DNA of 56,093 bases from Tubiluchus corallicola (Eukaryota; Animalia; Priapulida): NCBI GenBank assembly GCA_030141605.1, contig JAQGDQ010001195.1, positions 1-56,093 on the forward strand, in the 5' to 3' direction. Position numbers and translations under genes: made by a program. The notes beneath the pieces were generated by a model. That model saw only the letters and a program-made list of their open reading frames with translations. It was not told the DNA's origin and did not search any database. Every line of letters begins with the position of its first letter. The stretch's first letter is position 1. This document shows positions 5,598 through 56,093 of this stretch, in pieces.

Positions 5598-5980
5598 CTA
5601 GCAAAAGCCCTGCAAAAAATTTTGCATATAAATACACGTATAATCAAAAATACGCAAACATCCTACATAGTCTGCAGTTATAACGCAAAGCCAGCAGTAG
5701 CAGCTTTTACTGAATTAAAGTTATAGAAAGAGTATAATGGATGACGTCACAACAATGGCTTTGCGTCAGCAGTTTTCCAAGCGAAAATTGCCGAAAATAG
5801 ACCATGTAATTAACTCGTCGTCACTCCTCTTGGTGGACGTGTCCTAAAATATAACCCACATCATCAGGTAGCCCTGTTCCTGCTCTTTCTAAAGAGCCGT
5901 ATATCTCCTTCCGAGAGTCCCACCAGGCGCCGCTAGAACGTTGTTTCCGCAGGCTGTTTGGAAAAAAATTTCGAAAAATT
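5598..5980 (-). mobile_element. Non-autonomous Helitron, 3' half
   Basis: Reverse complement of the 3' half of 6110-6907; CTAG terminus at 5598 with an adjacent tgcaaaa/ttttgca hairpin. Confidence 0.75.
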
Positions 5981-6109
5981 GTTTAGTGTGGTCACGGAGC
6001 CTTTTTTATGTGCTTGCCCCCCCCGAACTTTAGAACTTCCCCTTGCACTTGAGAGCCTAATTAACAAAAAAAACACAATACAAACATTAAGACAATAGCT
6101 GCGCTAATA

Positions 6110-6907
6110 TCTATACTCTTATATTAATATTCTTGGTATGGGCTTTATATATATATATAAGATTCGAGGCTACAGCCCGAACGAGGGCACCATTTGCGGC
6201 GATCTATACATCAAACGAAAGGTCTCGATCTAGTGTCGTCTCATTGGGGGTTTATTTTTCGAATCGGGCCCACCGGGACGAACGGGGGGCGAAAAACCTC
6301 CAAAAATGGCCATTTTTCGGCCGTTTTTTGCAAAAGTTATACGGCTGAGATGTAGAGAACGGGAACGGCCCGAGGGGGGTACTGGGTATGGATAGATAGC
6401 CCGTTCAGCGGTGGGTGTAGTAGGCATATTTAGAATTCCCGAGAGGGCTACGGGGTCCCGCAACGGGCGTTTTCCCGGACCCAACTCGCGATTTTTTCGA
6501 AATTTTGACCAAACAGCCTGCGGGAAAAACGTTCTAGCGTCGCCCGGTGGGACTCTCAGAAGGAGATATGGGGCTCATTACAAAGAGGAAGAACGGGGCT
6601 ACACGATGATGTGGGCTATATGTTAGGGCAGGTCCACCGAGAGAAGTATCGACCAGTTAATTAGGAGTTCTATTTTCGGCAATTTTCGCTTAGAAAATTG
6701 CTGACGCAATGCCATTGTTGTGACGTAATCCATTATACTCTGCTTGTACTTTAATTCAGCAAAAAAATGCAGGCTTTGCGTTAGTTAAACAAACAGTAGG
6801 CATGATGTTACGGGCTTTGTGTTATAAATGAGGACTAGGTAGGATGTTCGCGTATTATTGATTACACGTGGTTTTTTACGCAAAATCTTTTGCGGGGCCT
6901 TTGCTAG
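6110..6907 (+). mobile_element. Non-autonomous Helitron, full length (~800 bp)
   Basis: A|TCTATACTCTTATATT 5' end; subterminal hairpin CGCAAAA..TTTTGCG about 10 nt before CTAG|T; no TIR and no TSD. Confidence 0.85.
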
Positions 6908-6933
6908 TCTCTTATATTAATATTCTTGGTATC

Positions 6934-6967
<34 letters not shown>

Positions 6968-7742
6968 ATTCGAGGCTACAGCTCCGACGAGGGCACCATT
7001 TGCGGCGATCTATACATCAAACGAAAGGTCTCGATCTAGTGTCGTGCCATTGATGGTTTATTTTTCGAATTGGGCCCACCGGGACGAACGGGGGGCGAAA
7101 AACCCCCCAAAATAGCCCTTTTTCGGGCGTTTTTTGCAAAAAATTGCAAAAGTTATACGGCCGAGATGTAGATAACGGGAACAGGCCGAAGGGGGTGCTG
7201 GGTATGGATAGATAGCCCGTTCAGCGGTGGGTGTAGTAGGCATATTTAGAATTCCCGAGAGGGCCACGGCGTCCCGCAACGGGCGTTTTCCCGGACCCAA
7301 CTCGCGATTTTTTCGAAATTTTGACCAAACAGCCTGCGGGAAAAACGTTCTAGCGGCGCCCGGTGGGACTCTCGGGAGGAGATTTATAGCTCTTTACAAA
7401 GAAGAAGGACAGGGCTACACGATGATGTGGGTTATATTTTAGGGCAGGTCCACCGAGAGGAGTACCGACGAGTTAATTAGCTGTTCTATTTTCGGCGATT
7501 TTCGCTTAGAAAACTGTTGTGACGAATTCCATTGTGCTGACGTCATCCATTGTACTCTGCTGTAATCTTATAACTTTAATTCAGCAAAAAGCTGCCTGCT
7601 ACGGGTTTGCGTTAGATAAACAGACATACAGTAGACAGGATGTTACGGGCTTTGTGTTATAAATGAGGACTGTGTAGGATGTTCGCGTGTTATTGATTAT
7701 ACGTGGTTTTTTACGCAAAATCTTTTGCGGGGCCTTTGCTAG
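6908..7742 (+). mobile_element. Non-autonomous Helitron, head-to-tail with the previous copy
   Basis: Junction CTAG|TCTCTTATATT; ends cgcaaaatcttttgcggggcctttgCTAG|T. Confidence 0.85.
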
Positions 7743-7761
7743 TAAGTAATTAATTAGCTAA

Positions 7762-8748
7762 CTAGCCAAACCTCACAAAAAGAATTTTGTGCACAAATCA
7801 ACACACAACCCACACCACACCACTCCACCTCATCGCACCACACTGCACCACACAATACCACCACACCGCACCGCACCACACCATACCACCTACACACCAC
7901 ACCACCCACACCATACCACTCCACCACATCACATCACACTGCACCACACCATACCACTGCACCACACCACAAAAGATTTTGCGTATAAATACACATGTAA
8001 TCAATAATACGAGAACATCCTACCTAGTCCTCATGTATAACGCAAAGCCCGTAACATCATGCCAACTGTTTGTTTAAGTAACGCAAAGCCTGTAGCTTTT
8101 TGCTGAATTAAAGTTATAAGCAGCGTAGAGTACAATGGATGACGTCACAACAATGCCTTTGCATCAGCAGTTTTCTAAGCGAAAATTGCCAAAAATAGAA
8201 CATCTAATTAACTCGCCAGTACTCCTCTCGGTGGACATGCCCTAAAATGTAGCCTACATCATCCTGTAGCCCCGTTCTTCCTCTTTCTAAAGAGCTATAT
8301 ATCTCATTCCGAGAGTCCCACCAGGCGCCGCTAGAACGTTTTTTCTGCAGGCTGTTTGGCCAAAATTTCGAAAAAATCGCGAGTTAGATCCAGGAAAACG
8401 CCTGTTGCGGGGCACCGTGGCCCTTTCGCGAATTCTAAATAGGCCTATGACACCCATCGCTGAACGGGCTATCTATCCGTACCCAGAACCCCCCTCGGCG
8501 CATTCCCGTTCTCTACATCTCAGCCGTATAACTTTTGCAAAAAACGGCCGAAAAATGGCCATTTTTGGAGGTTTTTCGCCCCCGTTCCTCCCGGTGGGCC
8601 CAATTCGAAAAATAAACCATCAATGAGACGACACTGGATCGAGACCTTTCGTTTGATGTATAGATCGCCGCAAATGGTGCAGTCGTCGGAGCTGTAGTCT
8701 CGAACCTTATATATTAAGATACCAAGAATATTAATATAAGAGAATAGA
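7762..8748 (-). mobile_element. Non-autonomous Helitron, inverted, with a CA-rich simple repeat in its 3' end
   Basis: 5' end A|TCTATTCTCTTATATT on the minus strand at 8748; CTAG at 7762; hairpin-like motifs at ~7775 and ~7968 separated by a CACAC/CACCA repeat. Confidence 0.8.
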
Positions 8749-21154: not shown

Positions 21155-21372
21155 GTACAGTACTACTGAATTAGGGAAGATGGAGACGATGCAAATGATG
21201 AATCTAAATCTTAAAACATTCTTTAAGTGATAGAGACATGTGACATTTTCATTGTCACCATCATCGTCACCATCATCTTGAACATTATCGACCATGACAC
21301 ATCAAATTTAACAGAGAGCATAAAAGTAGGCTAAAGTTTGCATATCTTCACACAAGAAATTAGATAATGAAG

Positions 21373-22024
21373 AGGATTAGGATTAGGATTAGGGCTAGGA
21401 TTAGGATTAGTGTACGGGTTAGTGTTAGCATTGGGGTTAGTGTAAGGGTTAGAGTTAGAGTTAAGCTTGGGGTTACGATTAGGTTTAGGGTTGGGGCTAG
21501 GGTGAGGGTTAGGATTAGGTTTAGGGTTGGGGCTAGGGTGAGGGTTAGGATTAGGTTTAGGGTTGGGGCTATAGTTAGGGTTAGGATTACAATGAGGGTT
21601 AGGATTAGGATTATAATTAGCGTTAGGATTAGGTTTAGGGTTGGGGTTAGGGTAAGGGTTAGAGTTAAGCTTGGGGTTACGATTAGGTTTAGGGTTAGGG
21701 TTAGGATTACAATGAGGGTTAGGATTAGGATTAGGGTTAGGATTAGGATTAGGGTTAGGATTACAATGAGGGTTAGGATTAGGTTTAGGGTTGGGATTAG
21801 GGTTAGGGTTAGAGTTAAGCCTGGTATTATGATTAGGTTTAGAGTTGGGGCTAGGGCTAGGATTAGTGTTAGAGTTAAGGTTGGGGTTACAATTAGGTTT
21901 AGGGCAAGGATTAGGGTTAGGGTTACGGCTAGGGTTAGGATTAGAGTTACGGCTAGGGTTAGGATTAGAGCTACGGCAAGGATTAGGATTAGGGTTACGG
22001 TTAGGGTTAGGGTTAAGATTAGGG
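21373..22024 (+). repeat. Degenerate telomere-like hexamer array (TTAGGG/TTAGGA variants), intronic
   Basis: Directly visible; explains the NPNP/LTLT/RVRI ORFs. Confidence 0.92.
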
Positions 22025-22511
22025 TATATATAAATTGTGTGGAGAATTGTAAACAACTTCTTAAAATTGATATTTTTATATATTTCAAATCACATTTATA
22101 AACTGGAATCTTAACTTACAATATAATCTTAATTTACCTTAAAAAGAATAAATTGTTTTTGTTTAGAAGACAAAAAATAGCACTAAATGATATGAAACTA
22201 CTTATCAATATAATATAGTGACTTTTACCATATTAACTTTATTTTTACTATATTGCCTTTACTCTATTAACACTTATCGGTGGCGATTGGCAAAAAAAAT
22301 CTGTATCTATTTGTAAAATAACACAGTCGGCTTGACTTAAAGTGGAAGAAAACGCCATTTTGAAGTACGTCCCAAAACATTTCCCGCGCAAAGTTATATT
22401 ACTTTGCATTTTACTTGCCTGCGGGAAAGATTTGTGTAGCAAGAAGAGAAAATTTTTAATTATTTAAAATGTTTAACACTTTGATTTTTATTGATTTTTT
22501 TTTCATTTCAG

Positions 22512-28727: not shown

Positions 28728-29545
28728 CACGCACGTTACATGATGATTGTAGTTAAGATGCGCTGCTGCGGTACACGCACGTTACATGATGGTTGTAGTT
28801 AAGATGCGTTGCTGTGATACACGCACGTTACATGATGGTTGTAGTTAAGATGCGTTGCTGTGGTACACACACGTTACATGATGGTTGTAGTTAAGATGCA
28901 TTGCTGTGGTACACGCACGTTACCTGATGATTGTAGTTAAGATGCGTTGCTGTGGTACACGCACGTTACATGATGGTTGTAGTTAAGATGCGTTGCTGTG
29001 GTACACGCACGTTACATGATGATTGTATTTAAGATGCGTTGCTGTGGTAGACGCACGTTACATGATGTTGTAGTTAAGATGCGCTGCTGTGGTACACGCA
29101 CGTTACATGATGGTTGTAGTTAAGATGCGTTGCTGTGATACACGCACGTTACATGATGGTTGTAGTTAAGATGCATTGCTGTGGTACACGCACGTTACAT
29201 GATGATTGTAGTTAAGATGCGTTGCTGTGGTACATGCACGTTACATGATGGTTGTAGTTAAGATGCGTTGCTGTGGTACACGCACGTTGCATGATGATTG
29301 TAGTTAAGATGCGTTGCTGTGGTACACGCACGTTACATGATGTTGTAGTTAAGATGCATTGCTGTGGTACACGCACGTTACATGATGATTGTAGTTAAGA
29401 TGCATTGCTGTGGTACACGCACGTTACATGATGGTTGTAATTAAGATGCGTTGCTGTGGTACACGCACGTTACATGATGATTGTAGTTAAGATGCGTTGC
29501 TGTGGTACACGCACGTTACATGATGATTGTAGTTAAGATGCGTTT
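28728..29545. repeat. 46-bp minisatellite (~17-18 copies)
   Basis: gcacgttaca at 28731, 28777, 28823... Confidence 0.95.
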
Positions 29546-30050: not shown

Positions 30051-30475
30051 TGTGCTGATTTAAACTTGTATTGCCCCCTCTTTTCTGTTATAAACTGGTT
30101 TCCTTTTAAACAGGTCATGTGACCAGTCTTTTACCTGTACACTTACCTGTAGATTGGAGTAACTCAGGCGTTCACACACTGCAGTGACAAATTGTTTAGC
30201 GTCATTCATTGATTTGTTGTTATAATTTCATAATTACACTTATAGAAGTCACCATGTAAGTTGATTTCTTAATTTCTTAAATCTTGGACCTTTGTTTATT
30301 AAAAAGACTAGAGATTAGATTTTATAATTTGCGTAAACGTTTGTTAAAGTTAATTAGATCAATTTGGTTTAGATTTCGCCGTAAAATTGAGCAAAATTAT
30401 ATTATTTGTTTTCAGATTAAACGATGCAAGCTACACAATTATGTTGTTGGAGCTTTTTTATAAGAAGGTAGCACA
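30051..30475 (+). repeat. 5' LTR (425 bp)
   Basis: TGTGCT...AGCACA inverted termini; TATAAA at 30089; ATTAAA at 30416. Confidence 0.93.
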
Positions 30476-30523
30476 GTTTAATATGCTTCTTGGTGTAATT
30501 GACATGGACGACAGCTATACCGT

Positions 30524-33500
30524 GTGTCCTTGAGCCAAGCTGGTATCTGGGTAGCTAGTAGCACTCATGACAAGGAAGCCGGAACTGACGCGGATGAAAA
30601 ATCAGCAAAAGCAACTTCAGAGCGGAAAAGCAAGCATAGCGCAAAGGGAGCTGAGAGGGATTCTCAATTCGCATCTTCCAAGACAGCTTCAAAGATGAGT
30701 GAGAGAAAGTTACGACTTCATGAACTGAAAATACAAGAGCAGGAATTAAAGCTGCAAGCAATGAAAATAAGGCATGAACGTTTGCAGAGTGAATTCTCAG
30801 GTGAGCAGAAGTCGCAGGTAACTGACATTAAACCAGCCAATTATGTGGCGCCACCTGTTGCCAAAAAATCGACTAAACAAAAGGTCGCTGAGTGGTTGAA
30901 GCAATCTGAAGACGTATCTGCAGATTTGCAACAAATAAGTGGAAAGTTTGAAGGCTCCAATAGTACAAATAAATACAAAACGGAAGCCTTCGTAATTCTT
31001 GCAACAAATGACAAGTAGACTTTAGGCGCTTTAGTTTTAGCAAGCAGCCTGCGTCGTGTTAGTACAGCTCGTTACTTAACTATCATGGTCACAAATAATA
31101 TATCGCAAAATATGATGAGGCATCTTCACGATAAATTTGACTATGTTCAACTAGTTGAAACAATAGATAGTAATGATCCAGAAAACCTGTATTTATTAGG
31201 AAGGCCTGAGCTTAATGTAACCTATACCAAATTACATTGTTGGCGCCTCACACAATTTAGCAAGTGTATTTTCTTGGACGCCGATACGTTGGTCCTGCAA
31301 AACATTGATGAACTCTTCCAAAGAGAGTTCCGACTGTTTTAATAGCGGCGTGTTTGTGTTTCAGCCAAGTATAGACACGTTCAATCAACTTGTTTCGTTT
31401 GTGACGTCCACGGCTAGCACGTTTGATGGAGGTGACCAAGGAATGCTAAACCAATACTTTAGTAATTGGGCTACAGATTATGAAAAACATTTACCTTTCG
31501 TTTACAATACTTCAATGCAAGGGCAATATGGTTACCAAAACGCCATCAAGTATTTCGGCGAGAATATCAAAGTTGCTCCTTTTATAGGTGCACACAAGCC
31601 TTGGGATGATATCCATAATTTACGACACAGGTACGTGGCTCCTCCTATGGGCGACGCAAGGTATGAACCAAGAATGTTCAGCGAGTGGTTTCATATTTAC
31701 AATGCTGACGTTATGCCTATGTTACATGAGCAACGTATAAGCAATGAAGCGCGCTATAATTTCCGTGATTCTAAAAACTTGCCCGCGGATGACTTAAATG
31801 TTTCAGCACCCACATTTGCCCCCGGGTTTCCAAGTAAAAGCGTGAGCCTTTGCTCAACCTCATACGTAGGCAAACATAAACAACTGCCAGCAACGTCGGC
31901 TGTGGATGAACCTGCTCGCGGATTGCAATGGATGGACCAATCTCAGGACATGACAGCATTCATGAAGATCATGCGTGAGGGACAGCGTCAGCAAATGAAC
32001 ATGTATAATGCCATGCAGCTTCCTGCGGTTGAGCTTGAAAAATTTGATGGCAACGTGATGCATTTCTGGTGTTTTATTAAGCGCTTCGAGGCCAGTGTAG
32101 AGAATTACACAGAAGATGAAGCAGCAAAATACACAAGGTTACTACAACTTTGCACTGGAAGAGCTAAGGCTGTCGTGGAGAGTTGCCATTATATGGATCC
32201 CCATATGGCCTTTAGACGTGCTAAGTATTTGCTAACAGAACGGTTTGGATCTCCCTACATGGTAACTCAGGCTTGGTTGGATAAAATTAACAATTTTAGT
32301 TGTATAAAAATACAGGAGCCAGAAAAGTTACAAGAGTTCTCAGATGCACTTGTTGGGTGTATTGAAACATTAAAATGCATGAACAATTTGAGTGAAATCA
32401 ATACTCAATCCGGTTTACTGCAAATTATTAGAAAACTGCCATATAAGTTCCAAGACAAATGGAAGGATGTTGTGTGCCGGTTACTGAAGACGCAAAACAG
32501 GAACCCATCCATATATGATGCAGTTGACTTTGTGAAAGAAGCAGCAGAGAATATGAATCATCCAGTATATGGAGAATTGTATAACAATGGCCCAAAGAGA
32601 GTGAAGCAAAGTAGTGCAGCCAAAAACTTTGCGAGCATTTCTAAAAATATTGCAACTCCTGGTGCTTCTACGCAAGTTACAAGGGTGAAAGAACGCAATC
32701 TAGAAGAGAGCAAGAAGCCAGGAAACAATGGCAAACAATGCTTGTTGTGTGACTCAGCTGAGCATGTATCATTACAAAAATGCAAAAAATTTAGCACGAT
32801 GAATGACATGGAGAAATTGGCATACACAAGGAAAGAACGTTTGTGCTACAATTGCCTGGCTAAAGGGAGACACAGAGCCTACCAGTGTACAAAACCCCCC
32901 TGCGATGTGGATGGATGCAACCGGAAACACTCTTCCTTACTTCACCATGCATTAGAAAGAAATGCACAAGCGCAGCAGAACAATGCAGCTAGCCAAACGG
33001 AAATGGATCGGCAAAGCACAACTCGAGCAGTCTCGTGTCTAAATAAAGCTTCCCGCACAGTCACAAAGGTGGCGTTACCAGTAGTGCCAGTCTTAGTACA
33101 TGTAGAAGGGAAACAACCTGTAAAAACATTGGCATTATTAGATCCAGGTTCTACAAACACCTTTTGTTCGGAAGCACTGTTTAATCGACTTGGAGCCAAA
33201 GGAAAAGAAAATGTTCTGTTGTTAATTACTATAGAGAAGAAACATAGCAGGACTGACACTATGGTAACTAGCATGACAGTCATGAGGATGGATAGAAACA
33301 ACCATATAGAGCTCCCTTGTGTATTTGTTCGGCCTACTCTCATGTTAGATGTTCAGTCTCTAGCAACGAATGAAGATGTGATAAAATGGCCGCAACTTCG
33401 AGACTTAGATGATGTTCTAATGAACATAGAGAAGAAAGATGTAACGGAATTAGGTCTCTTGATTGGTCAAGATGTCGGTGAGGCATTAATTCCCCTTGAA

Positions 33501-33560
33501 GTAAGGACGGGGGGAAAGGACGCCCCATATGCCATTAGAACCAAACTAGGTTGGACTTAA
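30524..33560 (+). pseudogene. gag-protease polyprotein region with an embedded glycogenin domain (one stop at 31016, one frameshift at ~31330)
   Basis: N-terminal charged/coiled-coil segment; LPAVELEKFDGN..FW..F (DUF1759-type Gag core); CLLC..H..C, CYNC..H..C, CDVDGC..H...LH; protease ALLDPGS and LLIGQD..A.RTKLGWT; possible start ATG at 30504 is out of frame. Confidence 0.88.
30983..31724 (+). pseudogene. GYG: Glycogenin-like GT8 catalytic domain, intronless, inside gag
   Basis: EAFVILATND, GALVLASSL, RPELNVTYTKLHCWRLTQFSKCIFLDADTLVLQNIDELF, DCFNSGVFVFQPS, FDGGDQGMLNQYFSNW, HLPFVYN, QYGY, FIGAHKPW and EWFHIY are colinear with animal glycogenin. Confidence 0.93.
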
Positions 33561-36500
33561 TGGCCCTGTAGGTGGCGGTAGAGTCAATATGTCAGTAGCA
33601 AATAACATGATTTTAACAAACGAAATGCAGAACCAGGATGAAAAACTGCAAAACCTTGTTGAGAGATTTTGGAAATTGGACAGTGTAGATGACGGTGGAC
33701 GTCTGTCCAGAGAAGACATTAAAGTACTAGACATTCGGGAGAAATCAATCACAAAACGAGGTGACCATTATGAACTGCAGATACCATTCAAGGAGGAAAA
33801 ATGCAAATTACCAAATAGCCGGGAGATGGCAGAAAAGAGGCTGGCTAGTTTGGGCACCAGACTAAACAAGAATCTAAAATTACATGAAAAATACACCGAG
33901 GAAATGAATGATTTACTTAGAAAGGGATATGCGGAGAAGGTTGAAGAAGCAGACGACCAAGATGTCACAATGAAATGGTATCGCCCACATTTTCCTGTTT
34001 ATAATGAAAATAAGCCTGACAAAACTCGGATAGTTTTCGATTGTGGAGCGAAATGTGATGGCATCTCGCTGAACATACTAGCATTACAGGGACCTGATCT
34101 GACCAATACACTTCTTGGAGTACTATTGCGGTTCAAGGAGAAGCCCATTGGAATGATGGCAGATATAGTGGGCATGTTTCATCAAGTCTTCGTTGCTCTT
34201 CAGAACAGAGACATGCTACGCTTCCTGTGGTGGCCAGATGGACAATTGGATAAACCACCACAAACTTATAGGATGACAGTGCATTTATTTGGAGGGGTTT
34301 GGTCCCCGAGTGCAGCGTCCTTTGCAGTCAGGCGCACAGCAACAGATAACGTAGAAAACTTTGACTATGAGGCAGTCAGTACTGTACTGCGCAATTTCTA
34401 TGTTGATGACTGCTTGAAATCCGTGGATACAGCAGAGCAAGCTATTAACCTAATTTCTTGCTTGTCTGCATTACTTGCCAAGGGAGGCTTTTGTTTAACC
34501 AAATGGACCAGCAATATCAAGCAGGTTTTAGCAGAAGTTCCAGAAGAGCACAGAGGCAAACTGGTTCAAAATTTAAACTGGGCTCATGATCCACTTCCCA
34601 TTGAGCGTGCCCTTGGGGTCAAATGGGAGGTCGAAGGAGACACCTTTGGAATCCAGGTCAAAACTAGGGATAAATCTCACACCAGGCGAGGACTTCTAAG
34701 CTCACTGGCTTCGGTATACGATCCCCTAGGAATGGTAAACCCATTTGTTTTGCAAGCAAAATTGCTTTTCCAGGATGAATGCCGCATCAAAACGAAGTCC
34801 TGGGATGATAAATTGGAGGATGCAACTGAGAAGAAATGGATTAAGTGGAAGAGCGAATGCCAACTTCTAGAGAGTTTCAAACTAAGCCGTTGTGTGAAGC
34901 CTTGTGATTTTGGCGCGGTTTTGACAAGTGAACTGCACCACTTTTGTGATGCATCGCAATATGCATACGGAGCTGTTAGTTATATACGTTTAACGAATGA
35001 CTGTGGTTCAGTTCATGTATCATTCCTAATGGCAAAGTCTCGACTAGCGCCAATTAAGGGTCTCACAATACCCAGACTGGAGCTGTGTTCAGCAGTACTA
35101 GCAGCAACAATGGACAAAATCCTAAGAGACAAGTTGTCTTTATACATAGATTCCTCAACTTTCTGGACTGATAGTGTCATAGTTCTGCAATATATAAGAA
35201 ACACTACAAAACGGTTTCACACGTTTGTGCAGAACAGAGTGACTCAGATTCTTGAAGTTTCATCTCCCATGCAGTGGCGTCATGTAGATTCACTGGAGAA
35301 CCCTGCTGACGACGTCTCCCGTGGGATGGATGCGGCTTCATTGATAGCCTTGGAAAGATGGAAACATGGACCAAGCTTTCTGCTAGAAACTGAAGAACAT
35401 TGGCCACAACTGAACATAGATGCAGAGAAAGACAGGATAGAAAACGACAAGGAAGTCAAGAAAGTGGCTACAGTTAACAACATTGAAGCGAAAAGTGAAG
35501 CAGATGTAGATGTCATCAATCAGCTGATAAAGCATTACTCATCGCTATATCGATTAAAGATGTCAGCATGGATACTGAGAGTCAAAAGAACACTTCTGGC
35601 TAAAATTAAAGGAAAAGATCTCCCTGAACTGGCTCACCTGACAAAGCCTGAACTGGATGAAGCCTTACACGAAATTACAAGGCATGTACAACGAGAATGC
35701 TTTGGTGCTGAACGTAGAGCATTAAAGTCAAAGGATCAGAATGTCGCAAAGTCAAGCACCTTATACAGACTAAATCTATTTATGGACGAAAAGTGTATCC
35801 TGCGTATTGGAGGCCGCCTGAAGAGATCAACCATGAATAGAGAAGTCAAGCATCCAATTATTCTACCTAAACGTCATAGACTTTCTCGGCTTATTGTAAA
35901 ACAATTCCATAAAGAGAATGGTCATGTTGGAAGAGACCATGTAATGGCATTGGTAAGAGCCAAGTTTTGGATCGTAGGCATAAGAGTGATTGCTCGACAA
36001 GTTTGCCATGAATGTAGAGAATGCCGACTACGTCATTCGCAACCTATGAAACAGAAGATGGCTGACTTGTCGAAAGAGAGGATTGAATGCACTGATGTGT
36101 TCTCTGTGGTTGGAGTGGACTGTTTTGGTCCTTTTCTTGTCAGACGTGGCAGAGTAGAAGTATAACGCTATGGAGCACTATTTACGTGTCTCTCAACTAG
36201 AAGCATCCACTTAGAAGTGCTATACGCCATGACAACAGACTCTTTCAACAGCTACTGCAGAAAGATATTGAGTGGGAGTTTAACCCTCCAAGTGCACCTC
36301 ATATGGGAGGAATATGGGAAGCTATGGTAAAAAGAGCAAAGAAAGTGTTACAGTCAGTAATGATGGAGCAAATCACCGATGACGAAGGCCTACACACACT
36401 ATTTTGCATAGTGGAAAACATTATCAATAGCAGGCCTCTAACGACACTTTCTGATGATCCTGCGGACTTTAACCCTTTGACGCCAAATCACCTTTTGCAG

Positions 36501-36857
36501 ATTCATTGTAAAACCAGCCTACCACCTGGCAAATTTGTTTCGGCAGACATCTACAGAAAGAAGTGGCGGCAGATTCAGCATTTAGCAAATATCTTCTGGC
36601 ATCGATGGCGAACTGAGTATTTGCCAATGTTACAGTACCGCTCTAAATGGAACAAAGAGAGAAGGAACATCCAAGATGGAGATGTCGTTCTCATCATGGA
36701 CAATGCTCCCAGAAATTGCTGGCTGCTAGGGCGCGTGATTGAAAGGCATGTTAGCAATGATGGATTAGTCAGAAGTGTCACCCTCAAGACCAAGGATGGA
36801 CTTCTACGAAGACCCATCCACAAGCTCTGCCTGTTAGAAAGTGTATATGATAATTAG
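33560..36857 (+). pseudogene. pol (RT, RNase H, integrase), disrupted
   Basis: RIVFDC, LQGPDL, ADIVGMF, FYVDD; HFCDAS, TIPRLEL, FWTDS, NPAD; integrase H..GH..C..C, VDCFGP, PHMGGIWE, INSRPL, RPIHKL; frameshift at ~33557, TAA at 36163, deletion at ~36250 removing the SDNG-type catalytic segment. Confidence 0.93.
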
Positions 36858-36940
36858 TTTTGGTAGTAATTGACACATTACTTAAAATGTTAATTAAAGG
36901 GGGTAATGTAAATGCTAAAAGGGAGCATTTAAGGGGGCAG

Positions 36941-37380
36941 TGTGCTGATTTATTTAAACTTGTGTTGCCCCCTCTTTTCTGTTATAAACTGGTTTCCTTT
37001 TAAACAGGTCATGTGACCAGTCTTTTACCTGTACACTTACCTGTAGATTAGAGTAACTCAGGCGTTCACACACTGCAGTGACAAATTGTTTAGTGTCAGT
37101 CATTGATTTGTTGTTATAATTTCATAATTACACTTATAGAAGATCAACATGTAAGTTGATTTGTTAATTTCTTAAATCTTGAACCTTTGTTTATTAAAAA
37201 GACTAGAGATTAGATTTTATTATTTGCGTAAAAGTTTGTTAAAGTTAATTAGATCAATTTGGTTTAGATTTCGCAGTAAATTGAGCAAAATTATATAAAA
37301 TTATGTTATTTGTTTTCAGATTAAACGATACAAGCTACACAATTATGTTGTTGGAGTTTTTTTTATAAGAAGGTAGCACA
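36941..37380 (+). repeat. 3' LTR (440 bp)
   Basis: About a dozen substitutions plus a few indels versus the 5' LTR by eye. Confidence 0.93.
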
Positions 37381-37746
37381 TCTATTGTGCTACCTTCTTA
37401 TAATAGCACATCTATTGTGCTACCTTCTTATAATCTTCTTATATCATAATATAACAATAGATAGCACATATGTGCTATCTATTGTTATATTTTCTTTCTT
37501 TTACTATGTATTGTTTCTTTTTTACTTAGAATTGTGAGTTACCGCTGAATTGCTTCAAAAGTCACATTTGCCCTGAAATACATTCATTGACTTTCTAATG
37601 TAGCATAATTTTGTGATATCAATTACCTCTCTGTATTCTAAACGAAAAACCCGTTTTCTGTTAATGTAGAAAACCATGGATCTTAAAGCAAATTGCATAA
37701 TCTTATGCATAACATTTCATTTCTTATTTACACGTATGAATTGTTA

Positions 37747-44128: not shown

Positions 44129-44566
44129 TGTGCTGATTTAAACTTGTATTGCCCCCTCTTTTCTGTTATAAATTGGTTTCCTTTTAAACAGGTCATGTGA
44201 CCAGTCTTTTACCTGTACACTTACCTGTAGATTGGAGTAACTCAGGCATTCACACACTGCAGTTACACATTGTTTAGCGTCATTCATTTATTCGTTGTTA
44301 TAATTTCATAATTACACTTATAGAAGATCACCATGTAAGTTGATTTGTTAATTTCTTAAATCTTGAACCTTTGTTTATTAAAAAGACTAGAGATTAGATT
44401 TTATAATTTGCGTAAAAACGTTGTTAAAGTTAATTAGATCAAATTTGGTTTAGATTTCGCCGTAAAATTGAGCAAAATTATATAAAATTATCTCATTGTT
44501 TTCAGATTAAACGATACAAGCTACATAATTATGTTGTTGGAGATTTTTTTATAAGAAGGTACCACA
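44129..44566 (+). mobile_element. Solo LTR of the same BEL/Pao family
   Basis: Colinear, high identity with 30051-30475; gaata follows it and also occurs 4 nt before its start (imperfect TSD). Confidence 0.93.
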
Positions 44567-44660
44567 GAATACTTAGCCTTAACAGAGCCCTGTTGATGCC
44601 ATTTTTTCTTCAGCTTGAGTTCTGCAAAATAATCGACATTTAAATTTTTTGCATTTGTAG

Positions 44661-51793: not shown

Positions 51794-52549
51794 GCCTAGA
51801 CTATAGCCTTGTTAGCCTGTTAAGTTAATATGGTTAAGACAGATTAGATTTAGCCTCAGATAGATTTAGGCATGCTCTGATTTCACTGAACTTTTCAGAT
51901 AGCTGCACACTTTTCACTGAAACCTCACAGAAGTAATGAGTGATCAATAAAGGATTACCTTTGCTAAAAGTAATCAGTAATAAGTAATTTGATTACAATT
52001 TTTATAAAGTAATTAGCAATCACGACAGATTACTTTTCAAAATGTAACGAACCCAATATTGCCTCGTTTAGTTAACAAATTTTCCCAGTTCTGATTTGTG
52101 CACAGCTATTTATAATGAGTTTCATGAATTTAGCTGCACGATTGGCGATGAACAAAATTGAAATACGTTAAAGGACAAAGAAAAGGGTAGGTAAAAGACG
52201 CACCATCTAAGGGTAGATAAAAGAGACTTCAGAGAAATTGGCTTAAAAAATGATATCACTTTATAGCAATTATACCTATGTATTTCACTCGCATTGATGA
52301 GATGATATTTTGTTTGTCTTAATTTTAAATCTCTCGCAATACTATTCTGACCGCACCATCGCATGGCATCATATATGCACAATGTAAATCATGTGTGAAA
52401 ATCATGTTTGAAGTTGTAGATCACTCACTTTGTTTTGATTGAGTTTAGGCACAGAAGTATGAACAAGAATAAAAAATCTATAATACATATTTGCACTGCA
52501 CACAACAGAAAAGTGTTTATTAAACTACAGACACATGAGTAGCACGACT

Positions 52550-53218
52550 GCTGCACTGAACACTGAGAGTGAGAGTGAGAGAGTCTCCTGCACTGAACAC
52601 TGAGAGTGAGAGAGAGAGAGAGAGTCTCCTGCACTGAACACTGAGAGTGTGAGAGTCTCCTGTACTGAACACTGAGAGTGAGAGTGTGAGAGTCTCCTGC
52701 ACTGAACACTGAGAGTGAGAGTGTGAGAGTCTCCTGCACTGAACACTGAGAGTGTGAGGGTCTCCTGCACTGAACACTGAGAGTGAGAGTGTGAGAGTCT
52801 CCTGCACTGAACACTGAGAGTGAGAGAGTCTCCTGCACTGAACACTGAGAGTGAGAGTGTGAGAGTCTCCTGCACTGAACACTGAGAGTGAGAGTGTGAG
52901 AGTCTCCTGCACTGAACACTGAGAGTGAGAGTATGAGAGTCTCCTGCACTGAACACTGAGAGTGAGAGAGGCTCCTGTACTGAACACTGAGAGTGAGAGT
53001 GTGAGAGTCTCCTGCACTGAACACTGAGAGTGAGAGTGTGAGAGTCTCCTGCACTGAACACTGAGAGTGTGAGAGTCTCCTGCACTGAACACTGAGAGTG
53101 AGAGTGTGAGAGTCTCCTGCACTGAACACTGAGAGTGAGAGAGTCTCCTGCACTGAACACTGAGACTGAGAGTGTGAGTCTCCTGCACTGAACACTGAGA
53201 GTGAGAGTGAGAGAGTGA
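52550..53218. repeat. Variable 28-36-bp minisatellite (GTCTCCTGCACTGAACACT plus a GAGAGT/GTGA tract)
   Basis: Directly visible; explains three overlapping repetitive minus-strand ORFs. Confidence 0.93.
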
Positions 53219-54375
53219 CTAGAAAGCAAAACCAGTCAGTACATAAAGGTATAGGTGACCTATGCAGACTTGCACAGGCTTCACAACAACCATTACTTTA
53301 AAATAGGGAGAGAACCAGTGAATATGCATTCACTGGACCGTACATTTATACTGGGGGTAAGTTGGCTGGTAGAATGTAACAGAATTAGCTCATAGATGGC
53401 AGCACCTAATTAAAATGTACAATTCCAACTTCTACATCAGGGGAAGAAAAGGAAATGTTATGCTATGTCTAAAAAAACTCCGTGCAAATCTATATTACCT
53501 TGCATTTCACTTACCTGCTAGAAAGATTTAGGCATCTAGAAAAGAAAATTATTAATTATTCAAAATGTTTTCATCAAATGGGCAAAATGTCGTTGACTCA
53601 CCCTCCCGGGTGCACCACTCACTAATCAAAAAACATAATTTTAACCTTATTGACAAGATACAATAATTTATTATTTTACTTAGTTAGTAACGTGTGCGCT
53701 ACGAATGCCGTGGTTAGTTTTTCAAATTTTACTCGGTGTTATCTAAACCTAACGTATTTGCATTACTAAATATCATTCTTGAAGTGTGTTGTACAAGAGG
53801 CTCTTGTGTGTTGTACAGGAGTAGCAGCCGAAACTCGACTCAATTTCCTCTTGATGACTCCAAAAACCTGTAATTGTATTTGTCTTTTTGTTCTCCTTAC
53901 TCCTTTCATAACATTTTCATTGCAAAATATTATAACTATACGTATACAAAATTTTTCTCCATTAACACAAACTATTTTAAAATTATTAATTACAATCCTG
54001 CAAAAATAAAAATATAATCACCTCTAAAAAAACTAAAACTATAATATCTAAAACATACTCCAATGAGCCTCTTTCTCCAAACTGTTTTTTATTGCTGTCC
54101 TGTTCTTACTGACCCACCTGACTTTCCCTTTTTCTCATTTATTACATAATTCTTTTCTCTCTAGTACAAACTACATATACCAACAAATGCCAGGTGCCAC
54201 TTGCTGGTCGGCCGCTGCTTAGCGATATACTTCAGTACAACCTAAAGACATGTGCTCGCACCTAGCATAACCTCTTTGGTTATCGCATTTCAAAGACCAA
54301 TTTTATATTGGTTTTCATAAAGAGTCTAGCGTTTCTTCTCTTTTCTTCTCTCATCTAGTGTTTCTTCTCTTTCAG

Positions 54376-55640: not shown

Positions 55641-56093
55641 TCATAGTTTCTCTAAACTTCTGGAATTAGTTAAAAGTTCTCTTGTCAATCTCCACGTTTG
55701 CTTAGCGGCCGTCTCGAGTCCAGCTGGACTTCTGCCCTTGAAGAGGTCCATTGCTGGAAGAAAGTAGTGCGGACACCTCCGACACTGTAAGCAGGAGATG
55801 AGCTGCAGAAAGATCCCATTTATCCTGTATCCTAGAGCAGTTTCATCCCAGTCACTTTCCCGGGGATGTTTTTCACATTCGTAAAGTAACAGAGTTTTCA
55901 TGTGGTAGTTCGTGATGGGTTGCCCCGTGAGATCTAGATGTCTGTCACGCATCGCTTTGAGGATGCTGAGGCATCTCTTCCGACAGCCGCCGTAGAGGAG
56001 CATGTTTTCTGCTTCATCGAAGGATATGACCCAGGCATCTCCTTCAGCAGAAGACTGCTTGGCGTGAACATGTGGAAGTTCTTTAGACAAGAG
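55641..56093 (-). CDS. mab-21: Protein mab-21 (MAB21L1/2 orthologue-like), C-terminal part; runs off the window
   Basis: KQSSAEGDAW, GGCRKRCLSILK..RDRHL, NYHMKTL..YECEKHPRE, LQLISCLQCRRCPHYFLP and AAKQTWRL.RE.LTN..SLEKL* match mab-21. Confidence 0.96.
   Translation of the reverse strand, partial: LLSKELPHVHAKQSSAEGDAWVISFDEAENMLLYGGCRKRCLSILKAMRDRHLDLTGQPITNYHMKTLLLYECEKHPRESDWDETALGYRINGIFLQLISCLQCRRCPHYFLPAMDLFKGRSPAGLETAAKQTWRLTRELLTNSRSLEKL

Follow-up and report, generated by a model that had tools for sequence, protein, structure and literature searches.

We analysed a window of 56,093 nt of Tubiluchus corallicola DNA (contig JAQGDQ010001195.1 of assembly GCA_030141605.1, forward strand). 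At 30051–37380, on the plus strand, the window holds a complete but decayed BEL/Pao (Belpaoviridae) retrotransposon of 7330 nt. Inside the Gag region of this element lies the entire catalytic domain of glycogenin, an enzyme of glycosyltransferase family 8 (GT8), without an intron.

A glycogenin-derived domain in a BEL/Pao Gag

A first-pass annotation of the sequence had placed an intronless glycogenin domain (30983–31724) between the coiled coil of Gag and its DUF1759 core, in frame at both ends. Open reading frames (ORFs), Pfam profiles and matches to glycogenin-1 (GYG1) agreed with this placement. The ORF 30503–31018 reads across the first junction into EAFVILATNDK and ends at the stop codon 31016–31018; the ORF 31019–31342 is the N-terminal half of the domain; and the ORF 31221–33560 reads across the second junction, its 779 amino acids comprising, without a stop, the C-terminal half, DUF1759, three Cys-His boxes and the protease motif. 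Compared with solved GYG1, the N-terminal half matched residues 4–118 (E 1e-35) and the C-terminal half residues 130–265 (E 4e-34). Glycogenin was the closest of the GT8 proteins, with an E-value of 1e-35 for GYG1 vs. 1e-8 for Gat1.

Alignment to mammalian glycogenin-1 revealed identical counterparts of Thr83, Lys86, Asp102, Asp104, Asp160, Tyr195 and Lys218, and both Asn133-Ser-Gly and Asp163-Gln-Gly were identical in the element. The DAD of the element aligns with Asp102–Asp104, the Mn2+ site (PMC5203857, excerpt), and the tyrosine of its QYGY aligns with Tyr195, the acceptor residue (PMC7046021, excerpt). The KPW motif is common to the two proteins. The same alignment bore out the first-pass description of the DxD, NSG, GGDQG and YxY motifs as intact, of a TAG at a conserved tyrosine and of a histidine changed to proline. 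Near-invariant positions that have changed in the element include the equivalents of Pro199 and Gly81, both of which are Asn.

The C-terminal tail of glycogenin binds glycogen synthase. A hidden Markov model of this tail from 104 hosts found no significant match in the six frames of the element (best E 0.32), while 115/120 host controls were positive. Judged by these comparisons, the insert is a glycogenin-derived domain and not a full glycogenin, and the missing tail argues against direct docking of the domain on glycogen synthase. The tail is also described as binding TRIM7 (PMC8203840, excerpt).

The GT8 domain is bracketed by two Gag motifs. Ahead of it lies a V..WL-like motif that recurs in 13/79 relatives (shuffled mean 2.3), and behind it an LN..A..F.P motif that 8/79 relatives have upstream of the core (shuffled mean 0.06). 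Both motifs are in the capsid frame, and the remaining two linker frames contain 7 and 10 stops. The bracketing therefore indicates that the linker is Gag and that its natural frame is the one read in the window. The N-terminal remnant was weakly similar to the 79 relatives (best E 0.0017), and its comparison with a profile of their N-terminal regions was not significant (E 1.6). Among relatives the region before the capsid is highly variable, ranging from 140 to 526 amino acids. As to the start of gag, the first-pass position of 30524 did not hold: the codon there is a GTG and no genuine start, and the gag frame has its first ATG at 30695.

An AlphaFold2 model of the Gag core reached a predicted local distance difference test score of 94.6. 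Its best Foldseek matches were the capsids of PNMA2 (probability 1.0, E 0.0099), murine leukemia virus, dArc1 and Copia, none with E ≤ 0.001. On this model the Gag core is a homolog of the Ortervirales capsids, though the E-values are weak.

The remaining anatomy is that of BEL/Pao. The two long terminal repeats (LTRs) share 412 matches and 12 mismatches over 424 aligned sites, and are 2.9% apart (Kimura two-parameter distance 0.029). LTR size, total length and TG..CA ends fall within the family ranges, which for Belpaoviridae are LTRs of 0.2–1.2 kb and a total of 4–10 kb (PMC8742986). The order protease, reverse transcriptase, RNase H, integrase (PR-RT-RH-IN) is present with LLDxG, YVDD and DAS motifs and Pao-specific profiles, and the triple Cys-His box pattern is among the Pao-like hallmarks described in PMC554778 (excerpt). 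Pfam profiles in pol were the Pao peptidase PF05380 (E 1.7e-45), the integrase zinc finger PF17921 and DUF5641 (PF18701, E 1.6e-31). The integrase core is broken by a stop at 36163–36165 plus frame changes. A primer-binding site of the tRNA-Arg or tRNA-Gly type was not identified in the element, for which no host tRNA was available for comparison. The flanks TCTTT and TCTAT form a 5-bp target duplication with one mismatch, a call that is doubtful because fold-back copies of the LTR end adjoin the 3' LTR. These lie in 37381–37490: the final 18 nt of the 3' LTR reappear there in reverse complement at 37386 and 37416, beside further palindromic bits.

Table 1. Features of the element and of the remainder of the window
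Feature	Position	Strand	Evidence and remarks
5' LTR	30051–30475	+	425 nt, LTR–LTR alignment; TG...CA ends
Gag N-terminal remnant	30560–30982	+	Motif and weak similarity; Ser-rich stretch, coiled coil, V..WL motif (30884–30898)
GT8 domain, N-terminal half	30983–31327	+	PF01501, E 7.7e-9; DxD motif 31277–31285
Frameshifting deletion	31323–31331	+	Glycogenin residues 119–129 missing; other copies 29 nt longer
GT8 domain, C-terminal half	31332–31724	+	PF01501, E 2.7e-7; NSG 31341–31349, GGDQG 31428–31442, acceptor Tyr 31527–31529
Gag linker	31725–32003	+	Motif comparison; LN..A..F.P motif (31794–31823); without glycogenin C-terminal tail
Gag capsid core	32004–32600	+	DUF1759 (PF03564, E 1e-7) at 32043–32468
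Triple Cys-His box (nucleocapsid)	32739–32945	+	Three boxes by pattern
Aspartic protease	33135–33560	+	LLDPGS motif; frame break ~33550–33560
pol: reverse transcriptase, RNase H, integrase zinc finger, integrase core, DUF5641	33550–36857	+	Pfam and motifs; YVDD 34399, DAS 34948
Polypurine tract	36931–36940	+	Directly 5' of 3' LTR, read from sequence
3' LTR	36941–37380	+	440 nt
Solo LTR, same family	44129–44567	+	94% identical; second insertion in window, without clean adjacent target duplication
Mab-21-like coding stretch	55644–56093	-	PF20266, E 2.9e-29; cut by window end
Cys-containing open frame, 176 codons	54330–54857	+	No Pfam match; possibly exon
Tandem array, 23-nt unit, >100 copies; ~42-nt unit just upstream of element; simple repeats	47562–~50300; 29000–29540; 2100–2800; 21330–22115; 52430–53300		
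Several inverted-repeat elements	5600–8700		

Other copies and the search for fused relatives

Other copies of the element were examined through contigs of four public runs, of which X1–X3 derive from one sample and X4 from a second study. No RNA run was among those listed as containing the element, and X6, a run presumed to be RNA, gave 0 contigs on it, which weighs neither way. The N-terminal junction of the insert was bridged without gaps by contigs of X2 (30809–31195), X3 (30893–31127) and X4 (30560–31101), and the C-terminal junction was bridged by contigs of X3 (31129–32300), X2 (31448–31971) and X4 (31618–31899). The first-pass annotation had named misassembly, and absence of the segment from other copies together with near-identity to host mRNA, as outcomes that would refute its reading. 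Since independent contigs from two studies bridge both junctions, misassembly does not account for it.

The main contig type, A, is ~98% like the window. A second type, B, is ~12% diverged (23 differences in 252 nt and 70 in 524 nt), and has the insert in the same place, continuing into the linker; among the rows listed, it retains both DxD aspartates and the acceptor tyrosine codon. A further type in X4 has 24 differences in 309 nt. The segment is thus found in contigs of two studies and in a diverged copy, and we regard the anatomy and the family-level presence of the insert as solid. Contig depths, taken without a single-copy baseline, suggest a low copy number of a few units. The sequence around the insert reads without poly(A), untranslated region (UTR) or target duplication, and no long high-identity host exon over the stretch at 80% likeness was among the contig rows listed.

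The window copy carries three lesions in the domain: the premature stop at 31016–31018, opposite glycogenin Tyr15; the frameshifting deletion; and a Pro at codon 31578–31580, the equivalent of His212. A role for the metal-binding histidine was demonstrated for the homolog Gat1 (10.1101/764241, excerpt). In 4/4 runs the main contigs read differently from the window at the stop codon, and X1 also has a contig with the stop. At the histidine codon the contigs differ from the window's Pro in 4/4 runs at full depth. The 29 extra nt at the frameshift were seen in the variant table for X2 and X4, and in gap counts for X1 and X3. Because the main contigs are without these lesions, all three (stop, 29-nt loss and His-to-Pro change) are private decay of the window copy, and the first-pass view of the two frame lesions as post-insertion decay is upheld. 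The window copy has most likely also lost the 5' part of gag upstream of 30560, because in X1 and X2 contigs start precisely there and an X4 contig continues into other sequence, with at least 255 other letters before 30560, of which the 30 seen are stop-free in the gag frame.

The runs held further related sequences. More distant Gag relatives gave short matches at 30805–30868 and 32001–32044. A distant GT8-like sequence matches 40 nt (31233–31272) in X1–X4 and continues coding-like with a DxD motif; its depth is ~2–3.5x that of the main type in X1–X3 and ~4380 in X4. This has the look of a multicopy or highly expressed sequence, which would belong to another element family or to a host gene family. 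A second distant GT8-like sequence, at 31422–31460 (X1, X2, X4), has the element's one-residue-longer segment before FDGGDQG and a shorter segment after it. One X2 contig joins 31444–31475 to 31635–31698, skipping 159 nt that include the acceptor tyrosine region, and a loose contig end before 31444 resembles a splice acceptor; the source may be a truncated copy with an internal deletion or a relative that has an intron. A host intron at 31444 was considered; given the contig joining 31475 to 31635, a truncated, internally deleted copy is equally likely, and the candidate was not used as evidence.

Searches for a fused GT8-Gag protein gave 9 matches among 495 long candidates, none of them fused, and no fusion among the best 120 of 572, the best 120 of 1988 or the best 150 of 5071 matches. 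The 274 proteins collected before the search that gave the best 120 of 1988 comprised 136 with GT8, 138 with the Gag core and 0 with both, and the 120 proteins from the best 120 of 1988 showed no DUF1759. In the best 150 of 5071, where a fused relative should rank first, the top match was a Gag-only fragment of 157 amino acids (P0131), 93% of it in the core. Viral contigs yielded no GT8-Gag fusion, metagenome contigs yielded none by a single query, and the ESM Atlas gave no usable match to a query of the C-terminal half plus capsid. Retroelement proteins were present at 0/80 glycogenin loci (80 of 297). The fusion was undescribed in the literature covered, with Repbase, Dfam, GyDB, most subscription journals and supplements outside that scope; "glyco" is absent from the main text of the BEL/Pao survey PMC3118150.

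Probable selection on the domain and the readings of the insert

To compare types A and B, we used the intervals 31274–31321, 31335–31421 and 31479–31610, which cover 89 of ~250 codons and in which the variant table is complete by depth cut-off; 15 variant rows outside or at the edges of the three intervals were left out. The two types differ by 16 silent and 15 amino-acid changes, distributed 10/5/16 over the codon positions. This corresponds to a rate of silent change (dS) of 0.35 and of amino-acid change (dN) of 0.075, a ratio of 0.22 (binomial p 0.0002). When the null was tightened to preserve the observed mutation types, 14/29 changes were silent against 9.0 ± 2.4 expected (p 0.035), and the ratio is nearer 0.4. 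The window-private changes in the C-terminal half (n = 8) served as a control: 3 were silent and 5 changed an amino acid, as under neutral decay. The dN/dS check proposed in the first-pass annotation thus gave a value below 1. With moderate strength, these counts point to purifying selection on GT8 after capture, at a dN/dS of about 0.2–0.4. The ratio was probably lower during active replication, since part of B's amino-acid change would be later decay.

Identity of the domain to 83 animal-type glycogenins averages 52% and never exceeds 56%, against a mean of 63% among those glycogenins themselves. In a quick tree the domain nests among them, its exact place unsure, on a branch of 1.12 vs. a median of 0.19. 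It kept 67/76 near-invariant columns and 7/60 variable ones. Third-position GC of the GT8 halves (0.37, 0.42) agrees with that of Gag core and pol (0.39) and is compatible with long residence, but is uninformative lacking a host-gene comparison.

Our best explanation, to which we assign an even chance, is that GT8, once captured from an mRNA, was kept as a working domain that glucosylates itself on the outside of the particle. The process would begin with template switching of a BEL/Pao lineage onto a spliced host glycogenin mRNA during reverse transcription, leaving the tail behind. Capture of an mRNA had been proposed in the first-pass annotation; the intronless, tail-less domain fits it, but the donor gene was not seen. 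Translation would then yield a single Gag-GT8-capsid-nucleocapsid-Pol polyprotein. In retroviruses, the part of Gag before the capsid domain faces out, and because of this, GT8, being placed before the capsid domain, would be displayed outward on the virus-like particle. Capsid assembly would crowd the GT8 domains, favouring a dimer that self-glucosylates its tyrosine with cytosolic UDP-glucose. The resulting maltooligosaccharide coat, together with pairing with host glycogenin, would anchor the particles at glycogen granules or hide them from host surveillance. The first-pass annotation had likewise suggested glucosylation of the capsid, or routing of particles to glycogen granules, as possible functions. 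The tail-less domain would not dock glycogen synthase directly, which makes a short glucan coat likelier than a complete granule. In a wider version, which we hold more tentatively, a working glycosyltransferase on the capsid polyprotein would build a glucan coat or glycogen seed, the particles would use the granules for shelter or transport, and the two distant GT8-like sequences would be further families of an old radiation of sugar-coated retroelements.

Several observations weigh against an active, retained domain. The evidence comes from DNA sequence, and no relative was found in any other species searched. Type A may be another insertion, or it may be the other allele of the window insertion. 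In type B the second tyrosine of YxY is changed, and its own indels at 31268, in the break region, at 31434 and at 31586 mean that some of its change is decay. An open frame from GT8 to the capsid is shown for the window and for no other contig: one A-type class carries 4 additional nt at 31818 (absent from an X2 contig of comparable depth), type B lacks 1 nt in the linker, and the X3 bridge contains two further gaps that were not placed. Such scattered, differing indels are the pattern expected of independent decay, but the open state rests on the window and the motif argument. The selection test comprised one pair with 89 of ~250 codons and variants from short contigs, its strict p was only 0.035, and selection merely for fold and frame would give an equal signal without catalysis. 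The fraction of near-invariant columns kept was 0.88 in the element, compared with a host mean of 0.98 and a lowest host value of 0.88; neutral drift to 90, 85 and 80% identity remained stop-free in 28, 15 and 4% of simulations (400 each, substitutions only). The divergence argument for retained function is modest, because the most divergent hosts score alike, neutral drift can stay stop-free and the host gene is not in the comparison. Finally, Mimivirus R707 retains the tyrosine yet is without self-glucosylation (PMC9614988, excerpt), and therefore a retained tyrosine is no proof of self-glucosylation.

A rival reading is a tolerated passenger, an in-frame captured and perhaps already divergent host paralog that is useless to the element, with selection only against frame breaks or misfolding over limited replication rounds. 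The low-looking copy number, the moderate dN/dS signal, the very variable length of the pre-capsid region in relatives and the lack of a fused relative elsewhere in the searches made are all in its favour, and the presence in these runs of two distant GT8-like sequences means that the host may own divergent paralogs. However, a useless insert of 770 nt should be easily lost, yet this one is present in copies with dS ~0.35 and in two studies; its trimming closely matches the catalytic domain, and no long host exon of high identity, at 80% likeness, was among the rows listed. We consider the passenger unlikely. A non-catalytic docking module, in which the dimer surface or the glucan-binding cleft pairs Gag with Gag or with host glycogenin on granules, appears quite improbable. 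It is favoured by glycogenin being a dimer whose glucosylation depends on cross-dimer contacts (10.1101/764241, excerpt), by the alteration of several near-invariant positions, such as Pro199 and Gly81, and by R707 as a viral homolog with changed chemistry (PMC9614988, excerpt). The presence of DxD, NSG, GGDQG and the equivalents of Thr83, Lys86, Tyr195 and Lys218, with a histidine change that is private, exceeds the needs of a dead scaffold.

If the locus were a host-domesticated chimera, that is, a glycogenin variant of the host in which the retroelement parts are incidental, the intact-looking enzyme fold would be accounted for, and gag co-option is reported from many eukaryotes. The window copy nevertheless has a stop, a frameshift and a 5' deletion, its LTRs and pol are present and decaying alike, and there are several insertions; domestication is largely refuted for this copy and is very improbable. 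An assembly chimera, or a one-off processed pseudogene inside an old element, is the least credible. The run sample richest in the element may be the window's own, which leaves room for an artefact; the X4 contigs bridging both junctions refute it unless X4 is from the same individual. Against a pseudogene stand the 12% diverged copy with the insert in the same place, the two in-frame ends, the missing poly(A), UTR and target duplication, and the excess of silent change between diverged copies.

Meaning and comparison with known systems

LTR retrotransposons seldom acquire an enzyme stably, and the known cases hint at what restricts such elements: N6-methyladenosine (m6A) marks, RNA ends, membranes and entry. 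With a glycogen-priming enzyme in Gag, the biology of retroelement particles would be tied to glycogen metabolism, and the fusion would, within the searches made, be the first case outside large DNA viruses in which the glycosylation of a capsid is self-encoded. Particles of BEL/Pao elements have hardly been studied (PMC8742986), and the fusion gives a concrete, testable handle on their assembly site. Enzyme capture by LTR elements is already known; the novelty is a BEL/Pao member with a glycogenin-derived domain inside Gag.

Described BEL/Pao elements (Sinbad, PMC554778, excerpt; PMC8742986) resemble the present one in its ~430-nt LTRs, 7.3 kb length, DUF1759, triple Cys-His box, LLDxG protease, YVDD reverse transcriptase, DAS RNase H, PR-RT-RH-IN order and DUF5641 tail. 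It differs in having a glycosyltransferase of 250 residues in frame inside Gag: 0/138 Gag-core relatives have GT8, and the Belpaoviridae profile names only gag, pol and an occasional env (PMC8742986). With glycogenin-1 (GYG1, CAZy GT8; PDB 1ll2, 3q4s, 7q0b) it shares the full catalytic domain with DxD, NSG, GGDQG, acceptor tyrosine and KPW. Unlike glycogenin-1, its domain has no intron and no tail, is fused at both ends, is ≤56% identical to any glycogenin sampled and sits on a long branch, and the window copy is broken.

Other LTR elements have also captured and kept host enzymes. Orchid Ty3/Gypsy elements carry an AlkB m6A demethylase (PMC9289625, excerpt) and rotifer LTR elements a GDSL or DEDDy ORF3 (PMC5408684, excerpt); theirs are separate ORFs acting on RNA or lipids, whereas here the enzyme lies within the structural polyprotein. 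The planarian Burro/GYPSM1 elements do have host-derived domains fused in frame in the ORF1 polyprotein, but they are Gypsy elements of 25–30 kb with apoptosis and ubiquitin control domains, no glycosyltransferase being noted in the excerpt of PMC6431247. Mimivirus R707 is, like the domain described here, a virus-encoded glycogenin homolog, proposed to glucosylate viral proteins; as excerpted in PMC9614988, it is a stand-alone protein of a giant DNA virus, 26% identical to glycogenin-1 and not self-glucosylating, whereas the T. corallicola domain is ~50% identical and fused to the capsid polyprotein of a retroelement.

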